Below, one piece after another: positions 25,804-36,015 of a DNA stretch of 64,000 nucleotides; within the stretch, counting starts at the first letter, position 1; every line of letters begins with the position of its first letter. The stretch spans positions 19,580 through 83,579 of the forward strand of contig JANQLN010000068.1 in the NCBI GenBank assembly GCA_028280575.1, written 5' to 3'. This stretch comes from Clostridia bacterium (GTDB lineage: Bacteria > Bacillota > Clostridia > Acetivibrionales > STF1-152). The notes beneath the pieces are model-generated. The model did not search any database. It saw only the letters and a list, made by a program, of their open reading frames with translations, and was not told the origin of the DNA. A program made the translations under genes and the position numbers.

Positions 25804-26197
25804 CATAATAATAAATAAATGTGCTACTATAGAAAGATGTATAAAAAGAATAGAACAGGAATATGATAACAACTATGAAAATCTGAAAAACTTTACCAAA
25901 CAAGACTCCATAATTCTTAATATACAAAGGGCTTGTGAAGCCTGTATTGACCTGGCCATGCATATAGTCTCAATAAAAGGATTGGGAATCCCACAAAAAA
26001 CAAGAGATGCATTTGATATTCTCTGCAAAAACGACATTATTAGTGAATTATTAAGTAAAAAAATGAAGTCAATGGTAGGATTCAGAAATATAGCAATCCA
26101 TGATTATCAGGAATTAAGTTTATCTATTATTAATGAAATTATTAAAAAGCATCTTAATGATTTTACTGAATTTACAAGCGTAATATTATCCATATAG
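25793..26197 (+). CDS. hepT: HEPN (DUF86) RNase toxin, HepT-type
   Basis: RNIAIHDY (R-x4-H followed by Tyr); ATG at 25793 after gaggt. Confidence 0.87.
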   Translation: MQNDIIINKCATIERCIKRIEQEYDNNYENLKNFTKQDSIILNIQRACEACIDLAMHIVSIKGLGIPQKTRDAFDILCKNDIISELLSKKMKSMVGFRNIAIHDYQELSLSIINEIIKKHLNDFTEFTSVILSI

Positions 26198-26213
26198 CAA
26201 GTCAAGGAGTCAG

Positions 26214-26468
26214 AGTCAAAGGGACGTTTCGTTTGACTTCAACTATATGTAATGTATTTATTAGGGTGAGATTAACATACCAGGAAAAGTCAGAATGATA
26301 AGTAAAACAGAAATTATCACACTACGGGGAATATTGGAGAATCAAGAAATAGTTGATGCGGATTTTTGTTTACTTTTCAATTATTGAAGAATTCATAAAA
26401 TATGAGACTGAATAAAGAACCGTGTAAATGGTAATAATCTCCACATAAAACAAAACGTCCCCTTGACT
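26214..26468 (+). mobile_element. RAYT-like relic, copy 2, bounded by inverted REP-like palindromes
   Basis: agtcaaagggacgtttcgtttgact (26214-26238) ... caaaacgtccccttgact (26451-26468); interior aligns with 35027-35224. Confidence 0.7.
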
Positions 26469-26470
26469 TC

Positions 26471-28258
26471 CTAAACGGTATACCATTCCATTTGTGCTGT
26501 ATACATTTTATAATATATACTATCAGGGTTATTTATTAATTCTTGATGTGAGCCGTCCTCATGTATGTATCCATCATTAATTACTATAATTCGGTCTGAA
26601 TATTTGGCAAATCCAAGGCGATGGGATACAAAAAATACCAATCTGTCTTTAGCAAGTGAAAAGACTAATTTATAAATGTCAATTTCGGCTAACGGGTCAA
26701 TATAAGAGGTGGGCTCGTCTAAAATCCAAACATTTGCTTTTTCATTAGCTATCAGCCTGGCAATTGCTAAACGCTGCCACTGTCCTTTTGATAATTCTAT
26801 TCCCTCTTCAAGATTACCTAACTTAGTATAAATTCCATCAGGTTTTGTTTTTATGAATTCATACAGGCCAACCATCTTTAGTATGTTATTAATTTTATCT
26901 GGATTTAGTTCCTTTCCTCCACAACCAATTTCTATATTTTCTTTAACACTCATTTGATAGTGCTTAAAATCTTGAATAACTGCAGTAGCACATAAATCAT
27001 TACAAGAATATTTTCCTTCATAATTTTCAAGCAATGATAGAATAATGGAAACAAATGTAGTTTTTCCGCTGCCGTTATAACCAACTACTGCTATCTTTTC
27101 ACCTTTTTTAAATGATATGTTTATTCCCTTTAACACATAATTAACAGTCTGAGAATATTTATATTTTAAATTTCTGATTTCTATTAAATTAGTGCTGGCC
27201 TGACAATCTATTGTGTTGTGTTCTTTATAATCCATAACTTCATAATAAGCTTCCAAGACTCTTATATACCAATTACTATTTAGCATAAAAACTGTAAAGC
27301 TTTTTACTGTCGAAAATAGATTGGTGAGTAGGGCTACAACCATACTAAAATACCCTATATTATATTCGCCGTCTGCCACGCCTTGTCCGACAGACAATAT
27401 GGTTATGATAAATGTAGCTAGAAAAAGGGCAGAAGAAACAAGCTCTGATGAAAATGACAAAACATTTAACTTTAAATAATTTTTACGTTCGCATTTATTA
27501 TAAAATTTATATTTGCTTAAAAAAAAGGCAAAGCTTCCTTCCACCTGTATATTTTGGTGGTTTATCCTATTGCCTAGAACTCCTTTGAAGTAATTATTTC
27601 TGCGTGTCTCGGGAGAAACGTGTTTTCTCCAATAATCAAGCTGCTTGTCTGTTACAATACCTGCCAAAATTATGTTAATTATCAAAGCTATTAATATTAC
27701 GACCAGAAACATAGTATTTATTTTTGATAAAAGAACTGAATAAACTACAAACATCAATATAATTCTGGCAATTTGTGTTATACCGAATACGGCATTGCTA
27801 TATTGTCCGCTAGCTTTGCGTGCAAAATCAATTTTTTCGTGAAATTGATTGTTTTCATAGTACTCGTATGATATATTTGAAAGCTTATTAACTATGCCTT
27901 TTTCCACTTCAAAAGATACCTTATCAACGTATTTTGCTGTTATTCTATAATATAAATTACTCAATAATCTCATAATCAGTAATGCAAGAAGAAACAGTAT
28001 TATTGATGCAAATATAGTAAAAAAATTATCATCAATTCCTTGCTTTGAATAAACCGATATGCTATTTGTGGTATATTCCAAAAATTTCAAATCAATAAAG
28101 CTAACGCTCATTGTTATACAGGCAAGGACAATAATCATAATAGTATCAAATTTGAATTTTGAATATAGCTCTTTAATAATTTTCCACTGGATAATAAAGA
28201 ACTTTTTTGCAGTTATTTTTTCATTCATGTCCTTACTTTTTACTTTTTTACTCTTCAT
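26471..28258 (-). CDS. ABC exporter (TMD + ATPase), RiPP cluster
   Basis: Multiple TM helices, GYNGSGKT, LSKGQWQR, LDEPT, SHRL. Confidence 0.92.
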   Translation of the reverse strand: MKSKKVKSKDMNEKITAKKFFIIQWKIIKELYSKFKFDTIMIIVLACITMSVSFIDLKFLEYTTNSISVYSKQGIDDNFFTIFASIILFLLALLIMRLLSNLYYRITAKYVDKVSFEVEKGIVNKLSNISYEYYENNQFHEKIDFARKASGQYSNAVFGITQIARIILMFVVYSVLLSKINTMFLVVILIALIINIILAGIVTDKQLDYWRKHVSPETRRNNYFKGVLGNRINHQNIQVEGSFAFFLSKYKFYNKCERKNYLKLNVLSFSSELVSSALFLATFIITILSVGQGVADGEYNIGYFSMVVALLTNLFSTVKSFTVFMLNSNWYIRVLEAYYEVMDYKEHNTIDCQASTNLIEIRNLKYKYSQTVNYVLKGINISFKKGEKIAVVGYNGSGKTTFVSIILSLLENYEGKYSCNDLCATAVIQDFKHYQMSVKENIEIGCGGKELNPDKINNILKMVGLYEFIKTKPDGIYTKLGNLEEGIELSKGQWQRLAIARLIANEKANVWILDEPTSYIDPLAEIDIYKLVFSLAKDRLVFFVSHRLGFAKYSDRIIVINDGYIHEDGSHQELINNPDSIYYKMYTAQMEWYTV

Positions 28259-30072
28259 ACCAATTCAAGTTTCTCCTCATACACCTTTTTTTGTTCATAA
28301 AAAAGCTTTGCATAATAGCCATTTTTTAAAAGCAGCTGTTCATGGGTTCCCTCTTCTGTAATTTTACCATTTTCAATCATGATAATCCTATCAGCAAGCC
28401 TTGCAAAGCCTATTCTATGTGATATTAGAATAGCTGTTTTACCTTTGATGTTTTCTCTCAGGCCATTTATCATATCTATTTCTTTTAGCGGGTCAATAGA
28501 CGCTGTCGGCTCGTCTAATATTAATATTTCAGGGTTTCCCAAATAAGCTGAGGCGATAATCAGTTTTTGCCACTCACCCCCGGATAGTTCAACTCCGTCA
28601 TCATTGTATTCTTTTCCGACAAAAGTATTATCCGAATCCTTATATTTAGATATAAAAGACTCTATACCTGCTTTTCTATAAGCAATCGTTAATTCGGGCT
28701 TGTCATTCATATATTTAATATTCCCAAGGCCGACAATTTCTTTTATTGATAATGAAAAACGCGAAAACTCTTGCGGAGCCATACCAAAGTATTGAAATAC
28801 TCTTGATTTTTCTTGTCCAATATCAAAACCATTAATAGCAACCTTTCCTCTTTGCGGATTAAGGCTTCCGTTAAGTAATTTTGATAACGTTGTTTTTCCG
28901 CTGCCGTTATATCCCATTATACTGACAATCTCCCCTTTTTTTAAATGCATTTTTAAATCATTAACAGCCGGATTATCACTATTTGGATAACAGTATGTTA
29001 CGTTAATTGATTCTAAGGATTCAAAAGAATCAAATACCAAATTATTTGACTCTTTACACTGCTTATTTAATTTTTTCGTCTCAATGTTACCAATAGGAGT
29101 TATAAATTCTACATAATCATTTATATATTTAAGGTCTTTATAAAAGCCATTCATTACAGTACTAACGACTTTATTTATCTGTGTGTATGATGCTTCTATT
29201 AAGCCAAACAGCATAACAAATGTACCGATATCGTACTTTTTATAATAAATTCCTGTAACTAATATGAGTATCGCAGCTACTCTCAAAAAGAATTTTACTA
29301 TCAGGGATAAATTATCCAGACTAATTCTTTTAAGCGATAAAGCTAAACGTTCCTGCCGAAGATTAGAATAGATATTATCCCACTTCTTGAGGATACTACT
29401 TTTATAATCATATATGCGGAGCTCTTTTGCATACTCCTTTCCAGTTAACAATTCAACAAAATAATCCCTGAACCGTTGTTCCTTTATTTGTTTTTTATCA
29501 AGTTCATATTCCTTTTTTGAAGTGTATTTCAATGTTATAAATGATATAACGGAACATAATATCGAATATGCTATCAACATGGGTTCATATATCACAAAAA
29601 TCATGATTGTACCAAAAATGGTGCCCATATTAGAAAAAAACAACATAATAAGATTATTCAAATAAGAACTAATCTTTTGTGTATTATTACTTATAAATGA
29701 ATACCTTTCCATAAACTTCTTATCAAAAAATCTCTCTTGCGGTGTTTCTAAACTTCTCCTCATAAATATACTTTGGAAAAGGAAATCAATATTAAGTCGA
29801 AAAAAATTATTACCAAATGCTTTGAGAAAACTATTTGATATATCTATAAAATACACAATCATATATGCCATGGCAATTCCAAAAAAGGCACCGGTTGTCT
29901 GGCCCACTTTAATACTTGAAGATAGCTCATTTATGAGATTTTTATTTAATATATTCAATAAAATACTTACGGCCGTTGAAAAAGAAAGTACCAGTATATA
30001 AACGAAAATGTAAAAAAAACAATATTTAAATGATTTTTTAATTATCCAAAGGATATTATTTATTTGCTTCAT
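28255..30072 (-). CDS. ABC exporter (TMD + ATPase), RiPP cluster
   Basis: GYNGSGKT, LSGGEWQK, LDEPT; 4-bp overlap with the next ABC gene; no C39 peptidase domain. Confidence 0.92.
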   Translation of the reverse strand: MKQINNILWIIKKSFKYCFFYIFVYILVLSFSTAVSILLNILNKNLINELSSSIKVGQTTGAFFGIAMAYMIVYFIDISNSFLKAFGNNFFRLNIDFLFQSIFMRRSLETPQERFFDKKFMERYSFISNNTQKISSYLNNLIMLFFSNMGTIFGTIMIFVIYEPMLIAYSILCSVISFITLKYTSKKEYELDKKQIKEQRFRDYFVELLTGKEYAKELRIYDYKSSILKKWDNIYSNLRQERLALSLKRISLDNLSLIVKFFLRVAAILILVTGIYYKKYDIGTFVMLFGLIEASYTQINKVVSTVMNGFYKDLKYINDYVEFITPIGNIETKKLNKQCKESNNLVFDSFESLESINVTYCYPNSDNPAVNDLKMHLKKGEIVSIMGYNGSGKTTLSKLLNGSLNPQRGKVAINGFDIGQEKSRVFQYFGMAPQEFSRFSLSIKEIVGLGNIKYMNDKPELTIAYRKAGIESFISKYKDSDNTFVGKEYNDDGVELSGGEWQKLIIASAYLGNPEILILDEPTASIDPLKEIDMINGLRENIKGKTAILISHRIGFARLADRIIMIENGKITEEGTHEQLLLKNGYYAKLFYEQKKVYEEKLELV

Positions 30073-30114
30073 AATGCTTCCTCATTAATTAATTAAGATA
30101 ATTGTGCTAATATT

Positions 30115-31164
30115 TTAGCTTACAATACTCTTTTTATTTGTTGCATAACGATACAAAAGATGATTAGTTTGCTTTTTCCTGAATAAACATCCTCCATCAG
30201 TTCCATAGAAATTGCCTAAATGAAAAGCTTTACCTCTGCACCCACCTCTGCAAATACTCTTACAAATACATTGATTGCAATTTGCCAGCTTTTCTTTACT
30301 GGCACTTTTTATGTTATTCAGAATGGTTTTATATTTTTCATTTTTAAAAATGTGTAGTAAATCATGGTCATTGATATTACCTAATATATATTCGTCACTA
30401 TATAATAATTGACACGGCAATACACAACCTTTGTAATTGATACATAAATTAATTTCACTTTTATCATCTGTTAACGGACAAATATAACCATATTGAATAG
30501 GATTTACATCTTCACGGTTATTCTTCATCATTAATTCACCAATTAGCAAATGTATTTTATATAAATCATCTACATTTTGAATAAACATGTCTTGTTTGCC
30601 TGACGCATTTCCTTGTCTTTCTAGGAGCCCAAAAATGGGAAGATAATCATAATATGAAATTAAATTATAAAACGCTTTTATGTCTTCTTTATTATAAGCT
30701 GAGACTACCATTTTCACAAATATTTTTTTAATACCACTCTTTTTTAACTGATCAATATTATGAATTGTTTTATTGAAGCTTCCATGTCCTCTAACTATAT
30801 CATTAGTTTCTGCTGTAGCACCATCTAAACTTATTTGCAAAGTTAAAAGTGAATATTTTTTGATATATTCTATGAACTTGGTATTAATAAGCGTACCATT
30901 AGTAACAATAGTAGCATTTAAACCTCTCTTAGTAATATAATCTAGTATTTTCAAAAAATTTTTATGTAATAGTGGTTCGCCACCTGACAGTGTTATGGAT
31001 TTAGCATTACTGATAAACAAATTGTCAACCAATGAACAAATTGCTTTATAAGATATTTCTTCATTGGGATTTTTTGGCGACTGGTTATAGCAATGCTTAC
31101 AACTTAAATTACATTTTGATGTTATTTCAATATAACAATTTCCAATTTTTCTCATAATAGCCAC
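30115..31164 (-). CDS. Radical SAM/SPASM peptide maturase
   Basis: CNLSCKHC (CxxxCxxC), SGGEPL, SLDG; SPASM region C...GCVLPC...CxxCx5CxxxCx16C; no N-terminal RRE. Confidence 0.92.
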   Translation of the reverse strand: MAIMRKIGNCYIEITSKCNLSCKHCYNQSPKNPNEEISYKAICSLVDNLFISNAKSITLSGGEPLLHKNFLKILDYITKRGLNATIVTNGTLINTKFIEYIKKYSLLTLQISLDGATAETNDIVRGHGSFNKTIHNIDQLKKSGIKKIFVKMVVSAYNKEDIKAFYNLISYYDYLPIFGLLERQGNASGKQDMFIQNVDDLYKIHLLIGELMMKNNREDVNPIQYGYICPLTDDKSEINLCINYKGCVLPCQLLYSDEYILGNINDHDLLHIFKNEKYKTILNNIKSASKEKLANCNQCICKSICRGGCRGKAFHLGNFYGTDGGCLFRKKQTNHLLYRYATNKKSIVS

Positions 31165-31172
31165 CCGTTAAC

Positions 31173-31733
31173 CTATATTATTTTTTGTATTAGTATACTA
31201 GCGTTTAACAATTGATATAAAAAATGATATGTTTCATCTAGCAATTCCTGTTTATCAACCTGAAACTCGTTTTGTAATGAAAGAATAATTTCAATTAAAG
31301 TTGTTTTACCATCAAACTTTTCTAATATATGTTTTTCCAAATCTTCAAGGACATAAACTATATTTTCTTGTGAATTAAAAATAACATATCCATCATCAAT
31401 ATTCTCTAAATGCAAAGATTTATTTGTAATATAGATTTTGTGCTTGTCATCTTTCATTTGTTCATTCTTATCCATCATTTGTTCAATAGTTTCTATTGCT
31501 ATATCCGTTTCATTTTCTTCATTGCCAAAATCATACTTAGTGCAATACCCTCCTGAAAAACTGAAACAAGTATCAGAATTGATATTCTTGTAGATACCTT
31601 TTTCATCCAGATTATTACTATTAGACCTTTTGCTCATACCCAAACCACATCCTTTATTCATACCCCCTCCAACTCCTTTGCTCATGCCCACTCCACTTTC
31701 TTTTATCAGGCTCCGTTCAGATATTTTTTTCAT
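31173..31733 (-). CDS. PqqD-family RiPP recognition element with an N-terminal precursor-like extension
   Basis: C-terminal ~88 aa fits PqqD (DDGYVIFN...VYVL......ILEKFDGKTTL.EI...L...F.V......D...FL.QL....IL); ATG at 31733 after gaaggtg. Confidence 0.8.
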   Translation of the reverse strand: MKKISERSLIKESGVGMSKGVGGGMNKGCGLGMSKRSNSNNLDEKGIYKNINSDTCFSFSGGYCTKYDFGNEENETDIAIETIEQMMDKNEQMKDDKHKIYITNKSLHLENIDDGYVIFNSQENIVYVLEDLEKHILEKFDGKTTLIEIILSLQNEFQVDKQELLDETYHFLYQLLNASILIQKII

Positions 31734-31801
31734 ATAACTACACCTTCTTTCAGTCAAATATATTTTTTTTATAAAACATCTGTAATAATTATAGAATACA
31801 C

Positions 31802-32100
31802 TTTATTGAATAATGAAAGAAAATAAACGATTATAGAACAATATCTTATTAAATCAATTTTCTGTATTCAAATAAATTATTTCGGACTACAATGGTCATC
31901 ACACCACCCACCGGAATAATTTGAACAAGCTCCAGCTACAATTTGATTATTGATTGATTCCTGATCCAGCTTTATGAGTTTAAGTGCTCTCCATTTCATG
32001 CATACCACCTCCTTTACATTCTCTTATAGTATGCTATATAAAATACGTAAATAGTTAATGATAAGTCTAGTTTTCGCTTTTCCCTTCATTATTCAATAAA
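31802..32100. repeat. Perfect 16-bp inverted repeat enclosing the precursor gene
   Basis: tttattgaataatgaa (31802-31817) and ttcattattcaataaa (32085-32100). Confidence 0.85.
31877..31999 (-). CDS. Putative RiPP precursor peptide, 40 aa: MKWRALKLIKLDQESINNQIVAGACSNYSGGWCDDHCSPK
   Basis: Hand-translated; strong RBS aaaggaggtgg upstream of the ATG at 31999; co-oriented in the cluster; Cys/Ser/aromatic C-terminal core. Confidence 0.88.
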   Translation of the reverse strand: MKWRALKLIKLDQESINNQIVAGACSNYSGGWCDDHCSPK

Positions 32101-32240
32101 TAGCAGTCAATAATTACTTTAATAGGAATTATATCAATTAACATACAGCATACAAAAATGATTTAAACAAGTTCTTCTATGATTTATTTATTAAATGTAT
32201 TTTACTCTAATTCCTAAGCTTAGAGATCATTAATTCCATT

Positions 32241-33791
32241 TCAACCTTTACAGATTACACCTTCCCCTTGCAAATATTTCCTGTTGTATTCTATATTTTT
32301 TATATTGTCTTGTGACAATAACGGCTTTATTACGCTGAAGCGGTCTTCACAGAAAAGTCTATCAAGGAAAGGGATCGGCCAAGTATTATATTCAGATTCT
32401 GCTAATCCAAACCGATCTAAAAAACCCGGTTCGCCTATTTCTAATTCCTGATAGGGTTCCAATATTGACTTATCGTCGAAAACCAAAGCTGTATAATACA
32501 AGGTGTAATATATGTATTTTTCAATATCATATAGTTTTGCTATCTTAATTACTAGGTCAGTATTTATATTCTCTTTCTTTACTAAACTATATACATCACA
32601 AAATCTACGTAAGCTTATACTTTTATTTCCGGATAATAAGTACAAAGAGCTATGTTCCTTATAATTGTGCAGACAATATTGTATAAAAGCCTTTTCAATG
32701 GAAAGTGTATAGAAATCAACCGAACCATATGTAGTCTTTACGGTATCTGATAAAAAATCTTTTATTTCTATAGATTGGCTTTCATGTTTCCCCCATAAGA
32801 TAGCAAAGTTAATGTTTATGCATATAAAGGGTATTCGTTCATCTGTATTAGGTTTTATATAAGGTAAAACTTGATTAGTAGAGTTTAAATAAAATAACAT
32901 CTGCTTTCGTGTAAATTTAGAAATGGTCATATTCTTATTCAGATATCCCTGTACGAAACCCTGTCTTTCTAATATAGATATAATATCTTGGAGATTTTGC
33001 TTGTCAATCAATATATTTATTTCTGATGAACCACTATAAGATTCGTCTTTATATACAGCTTTAGCTAAAGGTAGCCCTTTTATAATTGCATAGGGAAAAT
33101 CTATAGCAGAAATTATTGGGGGTAGCATATTATATAGTACCTGATAAGCTGATTTATTCAATACTCTCTTTACTCTTGATACAGCATCTAAGTTAAATTC
33201 TTTAAAACCATTCACTTTTGATAATAATTCTGTAATATTGTGACGTCGAAATATTCTCAAAGTATCTGCCAATATGTTTTTTGATAAGTGAGCAGTGTCA
33301 ATTAACCCCTTCTTAAATATTGAGCGTAATATGTGTAAAACAATATGGTAAAAGTTAGTTTCAACATTTAAGAATAAATTTTTGTACTTTTGATATTCAA
33401 CGTCCTTTATAATTTTTTCAATATTATAATTATAAATCTCTGCTACTTTGTGTACCTTAAAGGCCAAATCGATAAATATATTAATATTATTTATATCTAT
33501 ATATCCTTTTGTTAAATCGATTCCTCCCCTTTTTACAGATATAACTTTGCCTATGACGTTGTTTCTACTAACAAATTCCAAACGAAATGAATTATCACCT
33601 TTGCATAATAAACGGTTTTTTTGAACAGAGATAACTCTATGAACAAGATAACCTTCATCCTTATAAGAAAATACGACGATGTCTCCCGGATGATAATCAC
33701 AAAGTGGCCTTAAGCGAACTAAATCTCCATCTTTCAGGCGTGGATTCATACTAGCCCCTTTTACAATTATTGTAGTACCTTCAATTGTCAA
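32241..33791 (-). CDS. S24/S26 peptidase fused to an NTP_transf_5-type nucleotidyltransferase domain
   Basis: N-terminal GASMNPRLKDGD, LVHRV, KGDN; C-terminal YAIIKG..LA...Y, EINILI, later RRFCD. Confidence 0.8.
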   Translation of the reverse strand: MTIEGTTIIVKGASMNPRLKDGDLVRLRPLCDYHPGDIVVFSYKDEGYLVHRVISVQKNRLLCKGDNSFRLEFVSRNNVIGKVISVKRGGIDLTKGYIDINNINIFIDLAFKVHKVAEIYNYNIEKIIKDVEYQKYKNLFLNVETNFYHIVLHILRSIFKKGLIDTAHLSKNILADTLRIFRRHNITELLSKVNGFKEFNLDAVSRVKRVLNKSAYQVLYNMLPPIISAIDFPYAIIKGLPLAKAVYKDESYSGSSEINILIDKQNLQDIISILERQGFVQGYLNKNMTISKFTRKQMLFYLNSTNQVLPYIKPNTDERIPFICININFAILWGKHESQSIEIKDFLSDTVKTTYGSVDFYTLSIEKAFIQYCLHNYKEHSSLYLLSGNKSISLRRFCDVYSLVKKENINTDLVIKIAKLYDIEKYIYYTLYYTALVFDDKSILEPYQELEIGEPGFLDRFGLAESEYNTWPIPFLDRLFCEDRFSVIKPLLSQDNIKNIEYNRKYLQGEGVICKG

Positions 33792-34599
33792 AGTCCATCC
33801 TCCTTATCACTTGATTTACAAACTTCATTTCAGTGTAACTTATTTTCTTACAGAAGTATTGAGATAGTTGAGTCAGGAATTTTAGATAATTTTCAGATAT
33901 CTTTACTCTTTGAATAGAGTTTTCAAGCAATAGTTTTATTTTTTCTCCACAGTTCAATTTTTCAACTGCATTAGTATTTTCTGTTCTTTCAATTAGAAAT
34001 ATTTTTCCAAGCGGTACATTGCAATTTACTACATTTCCAGGTTTATATATATACCGCTCTGCAATGATATGGTTAAAAAAATGGGTATTAATGTTAATAT
34101 TATTATTATATAATGCTGTTATTCCACCACTCCTCAGATGGATATTACATGGAAAGGGAATTACTTCCTTTGTTTCTCTATCAATTATAGAACAATCATC
34201 TGTAATATAACCAAAATCTTGCTGTATTAAATAAGTAGTCAGTGTTGTCTTTCCACTGCTTGTAGGTCCCACTAGCAAAAAAGCCTCGCCGTTATATTCA
34301 ACTGCTGCTGCATGAATAGCAAAAAAACTTCGATTTATTTCAGTATTTTCATAAATAAAGTTTATTATTGTCTGTAAAGGATTTCTAACTTGTGTTCTTT
34401 TGTTATTCATATCAATCCATATACCGCTATCATTTTTTATTACCTTAATAATAGCGGACTTATTTGTCTGTGCTTTAGCAATAAAAGGCTCGTAATACAT
34501 TTCTATTTGTTTGATTAATTCCTTCATATTGGTATGAATCTCAATATCCGTATCATGGCAGGGTCTATTAATATATAATACATTTGTCATGCAGTCCAA
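33781..34599 (-). CDS. HPr kinase-related (RiPP-type) Ser/Thr kinase
   Basis: IHAAAV...GPTSSGKTTL P-loop and ITDD motif; 11-bp overlap with the peptidase gene. Confidence 0.8.
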   Translation of the reverse strand: MDCMTNVLYINRPCHDTDIEIHTNMKELIKQIEMYYEPFIAKAQTNKSAIIKVIKNDSGIWIDMNNKRTQVRNPLQTIINFIYENTEINRSFFAIHAAAVEYNGEAFLLVGPTSSGKTTLTTYLIQQDFGYITDDCSIIDRETKEVIPFPCNIHLRSGGITALYNNNININTHFFNHIIAERYIYKPGNVVNCNVPLGKIFLIERTENTNAVEKLNCGEKIKLLLENSIQRVKISENYLKFLTQLSQYFCKKISYTEMKFVNQVIRRMDFDN

Positions 34600-35026
34600 A
34601 TAAACATCAACTCCTTTTTTGTTTTTGGCTATCTACTAATTTTATTATTTATGTTTATTATTTATGCAAGTTTCACACAAACATGAACCTTCAAAGTGGA
34701 ATATTTAGTGCACCCTATTTCGTCCTGTCTGTGTTTTTTTTAACCTTTTTGCCGCATCTTTAAATGTAATTTTCCTTATTAAACAGCTACCTCTAAGCTT
34801 ATTATTTTGACCTTTGACATGCCTTTTTGAGCAAAAACAACAATAAGTAAATCCATACAATTTTCAATTGACATATTTATACTATACTATATAATTCAAT
34901 AAAAACCAAACATAAATTGGATTACTTCTTCTTTATATGTGATTACAAATATATGGTATACTATAATTTTATTCACGTCAACCTATTTTTGCTAATTTTG
35001 TGTAATTTATTTTTATTTGTTATTAA

Positions 35027-35480
35027 AGTCAAAGGGATGTTTTGTTTGCTTTAACTATATGTAATGATATATTTATTAGACAAGGGAGATGATTACTATG
35101 CCAAAAAAAGTCAGAATGATAAGTAAAACAGGGAATTTAACACACCACTAGGAATAGTTATGGAAATTACATGTCGGGAATCAAGGGATAGTTGATACGG
35201 ATTTTTGTTTTGGTTACTTTTCAAGTATCAAAGAATACAAAATATAATGAAGAAAAAAGAATGTCTGGATTATTATGACAGGGTGAGGTAAAAAGATGAT
35301 GGATTAAAGAAAAATATAGGTGAAAGGGTTGACATAAAGGTAATGGACACATCGGATATTCGCGTAGAAAAAGATAAAAATGGAAACAGGTGCAAGTATC
35401 AGGCACTTGAATGGTTCTTGGAAAAAATATAATTCAAAAAGCTTAATTAGCAAGTCAAACGAAACGTCCCCTTGACTTGC
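35027..35480 (+). mobile_element. RAYT-like relic, copy 3 (most complete; internally deleted)
   Basis: Inverted REP-like ends (35027-35050, 35450-35480); RBS plus MPKKVRMISKTG at 35098; fragments IVDTDF, ECLDY, TGASIR, NIIQKA*; HUH/Y1 core absent. Confidence 0.72.
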
Positions 35481-35550
35481 TTTTAAATAAATTCGAGAAT
35501 TATAAGACATTTTAAAATTTTCTCCGTATTTATATATGTAAACATAAATT

Positions 35551-36015
35551 GTGAAACAGGAGTTAATTTATATGAATAATGACCTTTTTAAATCTCAGAA
35601 AAATAAAATGATTGCCGGTGTTTGCGGAGGAATTGCCGAATTTACCCGGATAGATGCTACAATAATTCGTTTGGCGGTAGCAGCTATAGCATTTGTATTT
35701 CAACCGATTATTATCCTTTATATAATTGCTGCCATTGTTATACCCAGATATGACGGCAATGCACAATCAAATATGAATGGAACGTGTTCTTCTGAGGGTA
35801 ATCAGGATTCTTACTACAATGCCGGGGATGAAAACGGGCAAAATGATGATTATGATCCGCAAAATACAAGAGTTGTTTTGGGAGGAGCATTGATTTTGAT
35901 TGGTGCAGGTTTTCTTTCAAATTATATGTTTCCACAGTTTTATGAAAAGTTTTTCTGGCCATTTTTATTCATAGCGGCAGGTGCCGCAGTAATATATACT
36001 TCATATAAGAAATAA
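35551..36015 (+). CDS. PspC-domain membrane protein
   Basis: KMIAGVCGGIAE...DATIIRL...YIIAAIVIP plus a C-terminal TM pair. Confidence 0.88.
   Translation: MKQELIYMNNDLFKSQKNKMIAGVCGGIAEFTRIDATIIRLAVAAIAFVFQPIIILYIIAAIVIPRYDGNAQSNMNGTCSSEGNQDSYYNAGDENGQNDDYDPQNTRVVLGGALILIGAGFLSNYMFPQFYEKFFWPFLFIAAGAAVIYTSYKK

Follow-up and report, generated by a model that had tools for sequence, protein, structure and literature searches.

The 64,000-nt stretch of DNA analyzed here (referred to as the window) carries, on its minus strand at 26.4–34.6 kb, a biosynthetic gene cluster for a peptide that is synthesized ribosomally and modified post-translationally (RiPP), which is of the radical S-adenosylmethionine (rSAM) type and includes a discrete RiPP recognition element (RRE). 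The RRE gene, a pqqD homolog, encodes an extended N-terminal tail, and we consider it well supported by the sequence that this tail derives from a second precursor gene (termed A2), which was taken into the pqqD reading frame together with its ribosome-binding site and start codon. Read in this way, the copy includes the former ribosome-binding site, the former start, a proximal leader and a two-Cys core. The case for homology with the stand-alone precursor of the cluster, A1, is based on shuffle tests, on the first rank of the segment in the genome combined with its position next to A1, on a collinear relic of the start region and on the gene layout in related clusters. For the broader statement that joins this precursor origin with a present-day tail that is a flexible passenger of the RRE, we see somewhat better than even chances.

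Counted from the ATG at 31731–31733, the fusion open reading frame (ORF) encodes 186 amino acids (MKKISERS...). Minus-strand positions 31542–31610 specify LDEKGIYKNINSDTCFSFSGGYC, i.e. residues 42–64 of this ORF, which align without gaps to residues 11–33 of A1 with 9 of 23 positions identical and two aromatic swaps (F/Y and Y/W). A preliminary description of this DNA had reported this match, and both its coordinates and its alignment were confirmed. Of the leader part, 4 of 14 positions are identical, and of the C-x7-C part 5 of 9. ORF residues 1–100 and A1 gave a best gapless BLOSUM62 score of 54, a value reached by none of 1000 shuffles of A1 (mean 21.5, standard deviation 3.9, maximum 47) and by none of 1000 shuffles of the N-terminus (mean 22.1, standard deviation 4.0, maximum 42); the concern that the similarity might not stand out from shuffled controls thus fell away. 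When A1 was compared with 89,760 six-frame segments from across the genome, this segment came out as its top non-self match (rank 1 of 89,759), and the resemblance is specific to A1.

The start region of A1 is mirrored at the corresponding place in the fusion gene. The 12-base ribosome-binding site of A1 recurs at 31644–31655 with 11 of 12 bases identical, 6 nt before the codon for M33, and the distance from this site to the aligned Leu codon is 45 nt in the copy and 46 nt in A1. In the entire 64-kb window only two sites had at most one mismatch to the 12-mer, namely that of A1 itself and the relic, compared to an expectation of 0.33; two of 100 shuffles had two or more. The relic falls inside an in-frame tandem repeat at 31629–31703, identified by Tandem Repeats Finder (24 nt in 3.1 copies, 72% matches, no indels, score 80). 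This repeat encodes G-x-G-M-S/N-K three times, and every unit combines a GGAG-like site with an ATG (M17, M25 and M33). Two codons complete each unit after the ATG, and the whole is a triplicated translation-start module that might yield nested isoforms.

Related clusters reveal how such a fusion could have come about. In a class-level sample, for which 401 genomes were drawn and 399 scored, nine genomes encoded an rSAM protein with 28–37% identity to that of the window; these nearest rSAM relatives belong to other families of the class. Nine loci (L025–L033) from six of the nine genomes were read. They share an HprK-like protein, an S24 peptidase and usually an NTP_transf_5 protein, and 8 of the 9 contain a stand-alone pqqD gene of 89–116 codons whose product starts opposite residue ~98–99 of the fusion protein. 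All 12 rows of the PqqD alignment match PF05402. In three of the loci (L026, L029 and L030) the gene order is precursor–pqqD–rSAM and the precursor stop overlaps the pqqD start by 1–4 nt; therefore, loss of a single stop codon would suffice to fuse the two genes. A precursor profile run on the nine genomes returned 15 matches in eight of them, in open frames of 39–106 codons, none of which continues into a downstream domain (the 106-codon frame extends upstream only). As 6 of the 9 genomes hold at least two precursor-like matches, it is plausible that an ancestor possessed A1 as well as A2. The preliminary description had raised, as one of its options, that a second precursor gene was fused to pqqD, and the collinear start relic, the abutting precursors in three loci and the presence of at least two precursor-like matches in six of nine genomes now support it. 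To its question of how homologous clusters encode this region, fused or split, the loci give a clear answer: none of the eight related PqqD genes is fused.

Searches for the fusion beyond these loci returned only the protein itself. A word search of 5.8 billion proteins, covering lengths of 102–326 amino acids, found no other example. HMMER against 1.84 billion representatives yielded five other matches, all confined to residues ~90–184; since all five are limited to the PqqD domain, the tail has no comparative series. Two distant proteins seen in the HMMER search, P0003 and P0005 (205 and 208 amino acids), contained two matched stretches each, which suggests tandem double-PqqD proteins, another way by which PF05402-only proteins may exceed discrete size. 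Residues 1–95 had no usable match in the ESM Atlas, and the fusion protein compared against 150 relatives gave three weak matches (E 2.7e-4 to 0.0097), none of them shown to be related to the fusion. The precursor profile, searched against longer proteins among 5.8 billion sequences, matched just two, i.e. the window's own protein (a row in the query) and P0007, an over-long ORF call with a precursor at its C-terminus; neither is a new fusion, and this blank is weak evidence. In 400 other genomes of the phylum, the same profile gave four marginal matches (E ~0.008, ~17.5 bits), which were taken as noise. The rSAM gene had no homolog at E ≤ 1e-35 in 148 other genomes of the same order, and scans of genome and metagenome contigs recovered only distant rSAM genes (24–30% identity). 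This patchy spread of the rSAM protein suggests horizontal acquisition. The fusion was seen only in this organism and is likelier to be an evolutionary fossil than a new mechanism.

The tail belongs to an uninterrupted reading frame. It has no stop in 92 codons, compared to 9 and 15 stops in the other two frames, and none of 20,000 shuffles was open; overall, the open frame that contains the copy and continues into the PqqD domain comprises 209 codons, and that of A1 48. An assembly error had been considered as a cause of the fusion, yet separately assembled contigs from three further runs and two studies carry the identical sequence (X2, 31421–31685; X3, 31338–31778; X4, from the second study, 31403–31553 and 31619–31930). 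Because these contigs share the open frame, the fusion is not an assembly artefact. Run X1 covers the entire stretch, although this DNA may itself have come from that run. The read-set evidence consists of contigs, seemingly of one strain, and rare variants drop out of contigs.

Pairing energies to a generic anti-Shine-Dalgarno core, which averaged −2.1 kcal/mol over all 2529 ATGs of the window, point to translation starts upstream of the paralog. Four Met codons had a ribosome-binding site, M1 (−6.3 kcal/mol), M17 (−6.0), M25 (−11.4) and M33 (−6.6), and all four starts include the paralog; for comparison, the A1 start reached −13.0 kcal/mol. As there is no such site before M86 (+0.2), M87 (+0.2) or M93 (−3.1), a normal-sized PqqD would need to be initiated without one. 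Translation from an internal Met just before the PqqD domain, as envisaged earlier, is therefore not borne out by the predicted start sites, and the RRE probably exists only in its long form. One further detail concerns an A7 run at 31724–31730 of the minus strand, directly after the ATG of M1: in one contig of run X3, with a depth of 5.3, it is longer by an extra base, a change that would cut the M1 frame short after five codons, with M17, M25 and M33 remaining. This base may be a sequencing error, or the run may be a variable tract that switches the start used.

These data also bear on the idea that A2 and PqqD are still made as two products, be it through a hidden stop or frameshift, internal initiation at M86, M87 or M93, or programmed termination. 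Initiation at M93 would give a 94-amino-acid PqqD, the normal size for the family, and the extra A7 base in the low-depth X3 contig indicates that the 5′ homopolymer is of uncertain or variable length. However, contigs of X2, X3 and in part X4 are identical across residues 64–93, and the internal Met codons lack a ribosome-binding site; we regard separate products as quite improbable.

Alignment with the precursors of the related clusters indicates what the copy has lost. The family has a leader of the form K-x-W-x-K-P-x-M...E-L...small-x-small and a core of the form C-S-x-Y/F...C. In 10 of the 11 aligned sequences a Trp lies ~22 residues ahead of the first Cys, as part of the W-x-x-P/L motif, and only the copy has Ser instead; three residues further on, the copy again has Ser in place of Pro or Leu. 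At the small-x-small site before the first Cys it reads S-D-T, compared to A/S/L-x-A/G in the other ten. The Ser that follows the first Cys is likewise found in 10 of 11 sequences, with Phe in the copy only. Both Cys columns are invariant (11/11), and the copy keeps the C-x7-C spacing of A1. It is, moreover, no stand-alone short ORF with its own stop. The alignment thus bears out the earlier remark that the W-x4-L motif and the A-x-A site (SDT instead) are missing from the copy, although S-D-T is not proven to be uncleavable. With the Trp, the Pro/Leu, the small-x-small site and the Ser gone, the copy could not act as a normal precursor that is recognized, cleaved and exported. A better-kept core than leader was considered as a special feature of the copy and dropped, as the same holds among true precursors (mean identity of 0.34 for the leader and 0.54 for the core; just 5 of 45 pairs have the higher value in the leader).

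The importance of the lost Trp and Pro/Leu is illustrated by a characterized system. According to the accessible text of PMC12710340, WxxP is the experimentally supported recognition sequence of the discrete sactipeptide RRE StsC, and variants at W(−15)/V(−14) and K(−13)/P(−12) are no longer retained. By analogy, the RRE of the present cluster may grip the W-x-x-P/L motif that is absent from the copy, and binding of the A1 leader by this RRE is presumed.

Pfam PqqD (PF05402) is the sole Pfam match of the fusion protein (residues 116–180, 28.9 bits vs. a cut-off of 23.4). The named NCBIfam PqqD subfamilies all score below their cut-offs, namely PQQ PqqD (29.6 vs. 46 bits), ScmD (23.8 vs. 100), lasso PqqD (21.6 vs. 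80), PqqD_rel_X (16 vs. 35) and WgkC (14.5 vs. 110). AlphaFold2 modeled the RRE domain with a predicted local distance difference test (pLDDT) score of 90–95, and in this model the domain shows three strands followed by three helices, the winged-helix RRE fold as defined in the accessible part of PMC12710340. Foldseek ranked TbiB1 with its leader first (5v1v_A; template modeling (TM) score on the target 0.85, E 3.6e-5), followed by 5v1u, 6jx3 and 5sxy, all of them RREs bound to leaders; the lasso B1 proteins had TM scores on the target of 0.81–0.85. Residues 1–66 were mostly below a pLDDT of 50 (1–3, 6–43 and 46–66) and without secondary structure, and a predicted helix at 72–96 leads into the domain (block-mean pLDDT 67–82 over residues 71–100). 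The monomer model left the tail undocked, which is a weak result because the tail has no alignment depth; a complex prediction of the RRE domain with residues 33–80 scored 0.02 and carries no weight either way.

An alternative from the preliminary description was that the tail is a decoy or autoregulatory pseudo-substrate, which would occupy the RRE cleft or the rSAM active site and damp or gate A1 maturation. Such a role could draw on the proximal leader pattern L-D-x3-I-x3-I and the core-like loop, which the segment keeps and which are held beside the RRE. Yet the segment is devoid of the WxxP-type motif that is bound by the RRE in the closest characterized discrete-RRE system, the best structural matches are lasso B1 proteins with leaders, the low-confidence tail of the AlphaFold2 monomer is not docked, and the arrangement is conserved nowhere else. 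A mimic that fills the RRE cleft is accordingly disfavored, and we rate the decoy in either form as very unlikely.

We propose that A2 once lay directly in front of pqqD, as the precursor does in related clusters, that its stop codon was lost, that its 5′ region was triplicated in frame, and that a new start was gained upstream, so that the whole stretch would now be read as the N-terminal tail of the RRE. The tail would be a flexible passenger, with the C-terminal RRE domain still presenting A1 in trans to the rSAM protein. Observed directly are the similarity, the collinear relic of the start region, the tandem repeat, the open frame, its occurrence in independent read sets and its absence from relatives; we infer the order of these events, the long form as the form made and the lack of a function for the tail. 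The passenger-tail part is preferred because the fusion is unique to this organism, because hardly any position typical of the family is left in the copy apart from the two Cys and because no ordered contact is suggested.

A number of observations weigh against this explanation, some against the precursor origin and others against an inert tail. As to origin, the genome-wide significance of the match is weak (E 0.39 in blastp; 1.3 in phmmer, 0.478 in a separate search), and a family precursor profile built without the segment scores it −4.8 and −7.3 bits, placing it at ranks 69,153 of 69,333 and 68,522 of 68,706 among the matches listed. A1 itself reaches 22.8 bits (E 2.2e-4 genome-wide) against a profile of nine precursors from other genomes. 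A local DNA alignment of the two loci was not significant, with 51 of 500 shuffles equal or better, and homology depends on a single pair of short sequences. The likeness to A1 stops after the second Cys (0 of 7 residues identical in the A1 tail), and 473 of 500 shuffles score as high against the 3′ flank of A1 as the real linker does; the route of stop loss cannot be reconstructed from either the A1 tail or the linker. As to the tail, codon positions 1, 2 and 3 of copy and A1 are identical at 15, 16 and 10 of 23 sites (Fisher p = 0.07), and the better-kept first and second positions hint at some constraint on the peptide, a poor fit to a pure fossil unless the fusion is young. The copy also keeps both Cys, their spacing and the S-G-G between them, the 92-codon frame has been kept open in AT-rich DNA, and all read sets carry one identical sequence. 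Besides, should the long RRE be the only form made, the organism at least tolerates the tail, which could have a role.

The weak E values, the negative profile scores and the non-significant DNA alignment are what a chance or convergent resemblance would predict, with the tail as an unrelated low-complexity extension. We nevertheless give this reading scant credence, given that not one of 1000 shuffles reached the observed score, that the segment ranks first of 89,759 in the genome and lies in the neighboring gene, that the ribosome-binding-site relic is collinear (45 vs. 46 nt), and that relatives hold a precursor gene at exactly the same place. The age of the fusion is a separate matter. The preliminary description had called it potentially recent; this is not shown, as the copy resembles A1 only to about the same degree as do the precursors of other genera, with 41 of 69 bases identical and third codon positions near saturation.

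The features that the copy has retained can also be read, in line with another option of the preliminary description, as those of a substrate tethered in cis, in which the C-x7-C loop would be delivered to the rSAM protein by its covalent link to the RRE without any need for a recognition motif, giving either a crosslinked RRE protein or a peptide released by another protease. Both Cys, the A1-like spacing and the aromatic-SGG-aromatic pattern are kept, the lost recognition motif is what tethering makes dispensable, the frame is open with ribosome-binding sites upstream and none before the internal Met codons, and ~35 linker residues separate the loop from the RRE domain. Moreover, fused and split precursor/enzyme systems exist among borosins and BURP cyclases, as described in the accessible portions of PMC8429565 and PMC10107690. 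On the other hand, the arrangement is known from one organism only (none of the 8 related PqqD genes or of the 15 related precursor copies is fused), the copy has Phe at position +2, where 10 of 11 aligned sequences have Ser, the small-x-small release site is absent, the advantage of the core over the leader in conservation is no greater than when true precursors from different genera are compared, and AlphaFold2 gives no ordered contact. A cis substrate, whether its product stays attached or is released, is in our view unlikely.

A bolder version of this idea takes the long form to be the working form, i.e. a ‘self-loaded’ RRE that carries its own leaderless core and has it crosslinked in cis by the rSAM protein, and appears distinctly unlikely. 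Engineered leader–enzyme fusions exist, and a self-loaded RRE would be their natural counterpart and the first precursor–RRE fusion. The three modules of ribosome-binding site and ATG together with the A7 tract could then determine the isoform produced. A working long form would also point to absorbed precursors within some over-long PF05402-only proteins of which PMC12710340, in its accessible text, takes note.

The cluster reads, on the minus strand, HprK-like protein, S24 peptidase–NTP_transf_5 fusion, A1, PqqD/RRE, rSAM/SPASM protein and two ABC exporters; coordinates are collected in Table 1. HprK-related homologs were found in seven of the related loci, with a 48-residue fragment match in L026. 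Proteins of 709–714 amino acids in L031 (8381–10510), L032 (3790–5925) and L033 (8717–10861) match both halves of the S24 peptidase–NTP_transf_5 fusion (clearly for both halves in L031), and the S24 peptidase is a separate gene in L027–L030. The related clusters, which come from several families of the same class, also hold a conserved ~350-amino-acid protein of unknown function. A promoter-like site (TTGATT-16 nt-TATAAT, 10 of 12 positions) lies between A1 and the fusion gene at 31830–31857 of the minus strand, and 26000–35600 contains no more such sites than shuffling leads one to expect; a terminator-like site was found nowhere in this region. Elsewhere in the genome there are two more PqqD-like ORFs of normal size (C103:79110–79355 and C30:93196–93417, with open frames of 96 and 100 codons), and the organism therefore probably has further RRE-dependent clusters.

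Table 1. Positions in the window of the fusion gene, its parts and the surrounding cluster genes
Feature	Coordinates	Strand	Basis
Whole fusion ORF, 186 aa (tail 1–92 and PqqD/RRE domain 93–186)	31173..31733	minus	ORF list, Pfam
Putative paralog of precursor A1, residues 42–64: proximal leader remnant and C-x7-C core-like motif	31542..31610	minus	Gapless alignment
Putative relic of ribosome-binding site (12-mer 31644–31655) and start codon M33 (31635–31637) of absorbed precursor	31635..31655	minus	
In-frame tandem repeat, 24 nt × 3.1	31629..31703	minus	Tandem Repeats Finder
Acidic linker, residues 65–92, between relic and RRE domain	31458..31541	minus	
RRE (PqqD-like) domain from M93; corresponds to the entire protein in relatives	31176..31457	minus	
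Stand-alone precursor A1, 40 aa, MKWRALK...; strong ribosome-binding site at 32004–32015	31877..31999	minus	
Radical SAM/SPASM maturase; Pfam Radical_SAM, Fer4_12, SPASM	30115..31164	minus	
516-aa protein joining an S24/S26-type peptidase to NTP_transf_5; candidate leader peptidase	32241..33791	minus	
HprK-related P-loop protein	33781..34599	minus	NCBIfam HprK_rel_A and HprK_rel_B, E ~1e-10, below cut-offs
Two ABC exporter genes	28255–30072 and 26471–28258	minus	Pfam/NCBIfam

If the tail is a fossil, it offers a clean case of how a RiPP cluster is reshaped, with a precursor that abuts its chaperone gene losing the stop codon and joining the chaperone. It would also be a warning for genome mining, in that over-long ‘PqqD-only’ proteins may hold dead or live precursors and precursor counts can err. 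If the tail is functional instead, it would be the first natural precursor–RRE fusion and offer a direct way to learn whether an rSAM maturase can work by tethering in place of leader recognition. Two RRE surveys (PMC7470986, PMC12710340) describe RREs as discrete or enzyme-fused and, in their accessible text, mention no precursor–RRE fusion, though their supplementary tables might list such cases. The same accessible text of PMC12710340 reports some PF05402-only proteins above discrete size and without other annotation, for some of which an absorbed precursor is a possible explanation.

The family to which the cluster belongs (rSAM/SPASM protein, discrete lasso-like RRE, HprK-like protein, S24 peptidase, NTP_transf_5, W-x-x-P leaders and two-Cys cores) appears to be uncharacterized in the searchable literature, and its parts recall several known systems. 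Like the streptosactin-type system StsA/StsB/StsC, it combines an rSAM/SPASM maturase nearest to StsB, a discrete PqqD-like RRE and a Cys-containing core, and the K-x-W-x-K-P of the related precursors resembles the WxxP/KPxWxxP recognition sequence of StsA–StsC as given in the accessible text of PMC12710340. However, the best NCBIfam match of the rSAM protein, the StsB family (NF045574), scores 139.1 bits vs. a cut-off of 625, so that it is not a member, and the Cys-to-alpha-carbon thioether crosslinks that mark StsB-type products may or may not be formed by the present cluster. The cluster further differs in its HprK-like protein and S24 peptidase–NTP_transf_5 fusion, and its RRE in the 92-residue tail of likely precursor origin.

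A second likeness is to lasso peptide systems, as the RRE domain is structurally closest to TbiB1 and another B1 protein, both leader-bound. Paeninodin-type clusters typically contain HPr-kinase-like and nucleotidyltransferase genes; HprK-like and NTP_transf_5 genes also occur together here, and the related leader in L030 weakly matches the paeninodin leader model (E 0.0016, 18.1 bits vs. a cut-off of 27). In contrast to lasso systems, the modifying enzyme here is an rSAM/SPASM protein, and neither a lasso cyclase nor a B2 protease was found among the seven cluster proteins scanned with Pfam and NCBIfam.

The SynChlorMet cassette (HprK-like ScmC, PqqD-like ScmD and the rSAM/SPASM proteins ScmE/ScmF) and the HPr-rel-A systems were compared by way of NCBIfam models. 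The cluster resembles them through weak matches to ScmC (30.0 bits), ScmD (23.8), ScmE (109.9), HprK_rel_A (40.7) and PqqD_rel_X (16), but belongs to neither, with the respective cut-offs (125, 100, 400, 200 and 35) far above these scores.

The closest parallels to the fusion as such are the borosins (OphMA vs. SonM/SonA) and the BURP-domain cyclases, for which the accessible parts of PMC8429565 and PMC10107690 describe precursors fused to a biosynthetic protein as well as split forms in related systems. As in those cases, a core-like peptide is here part of the same polypeptide as a biosynthetic protein, and the BURP core, according to the same parts of PMC10107690 and PMC8429565, resides in an N-terminal extension that split forms do not have. 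In those systems, however, a productive core is joined to the catalyst itself and many species conserve the fused form, whereas in the present case a degenerate copy, known as a fusion from one organism, is joined to a non-catalytic RRE, and the rSAM maturase is encoded by a separate gene.

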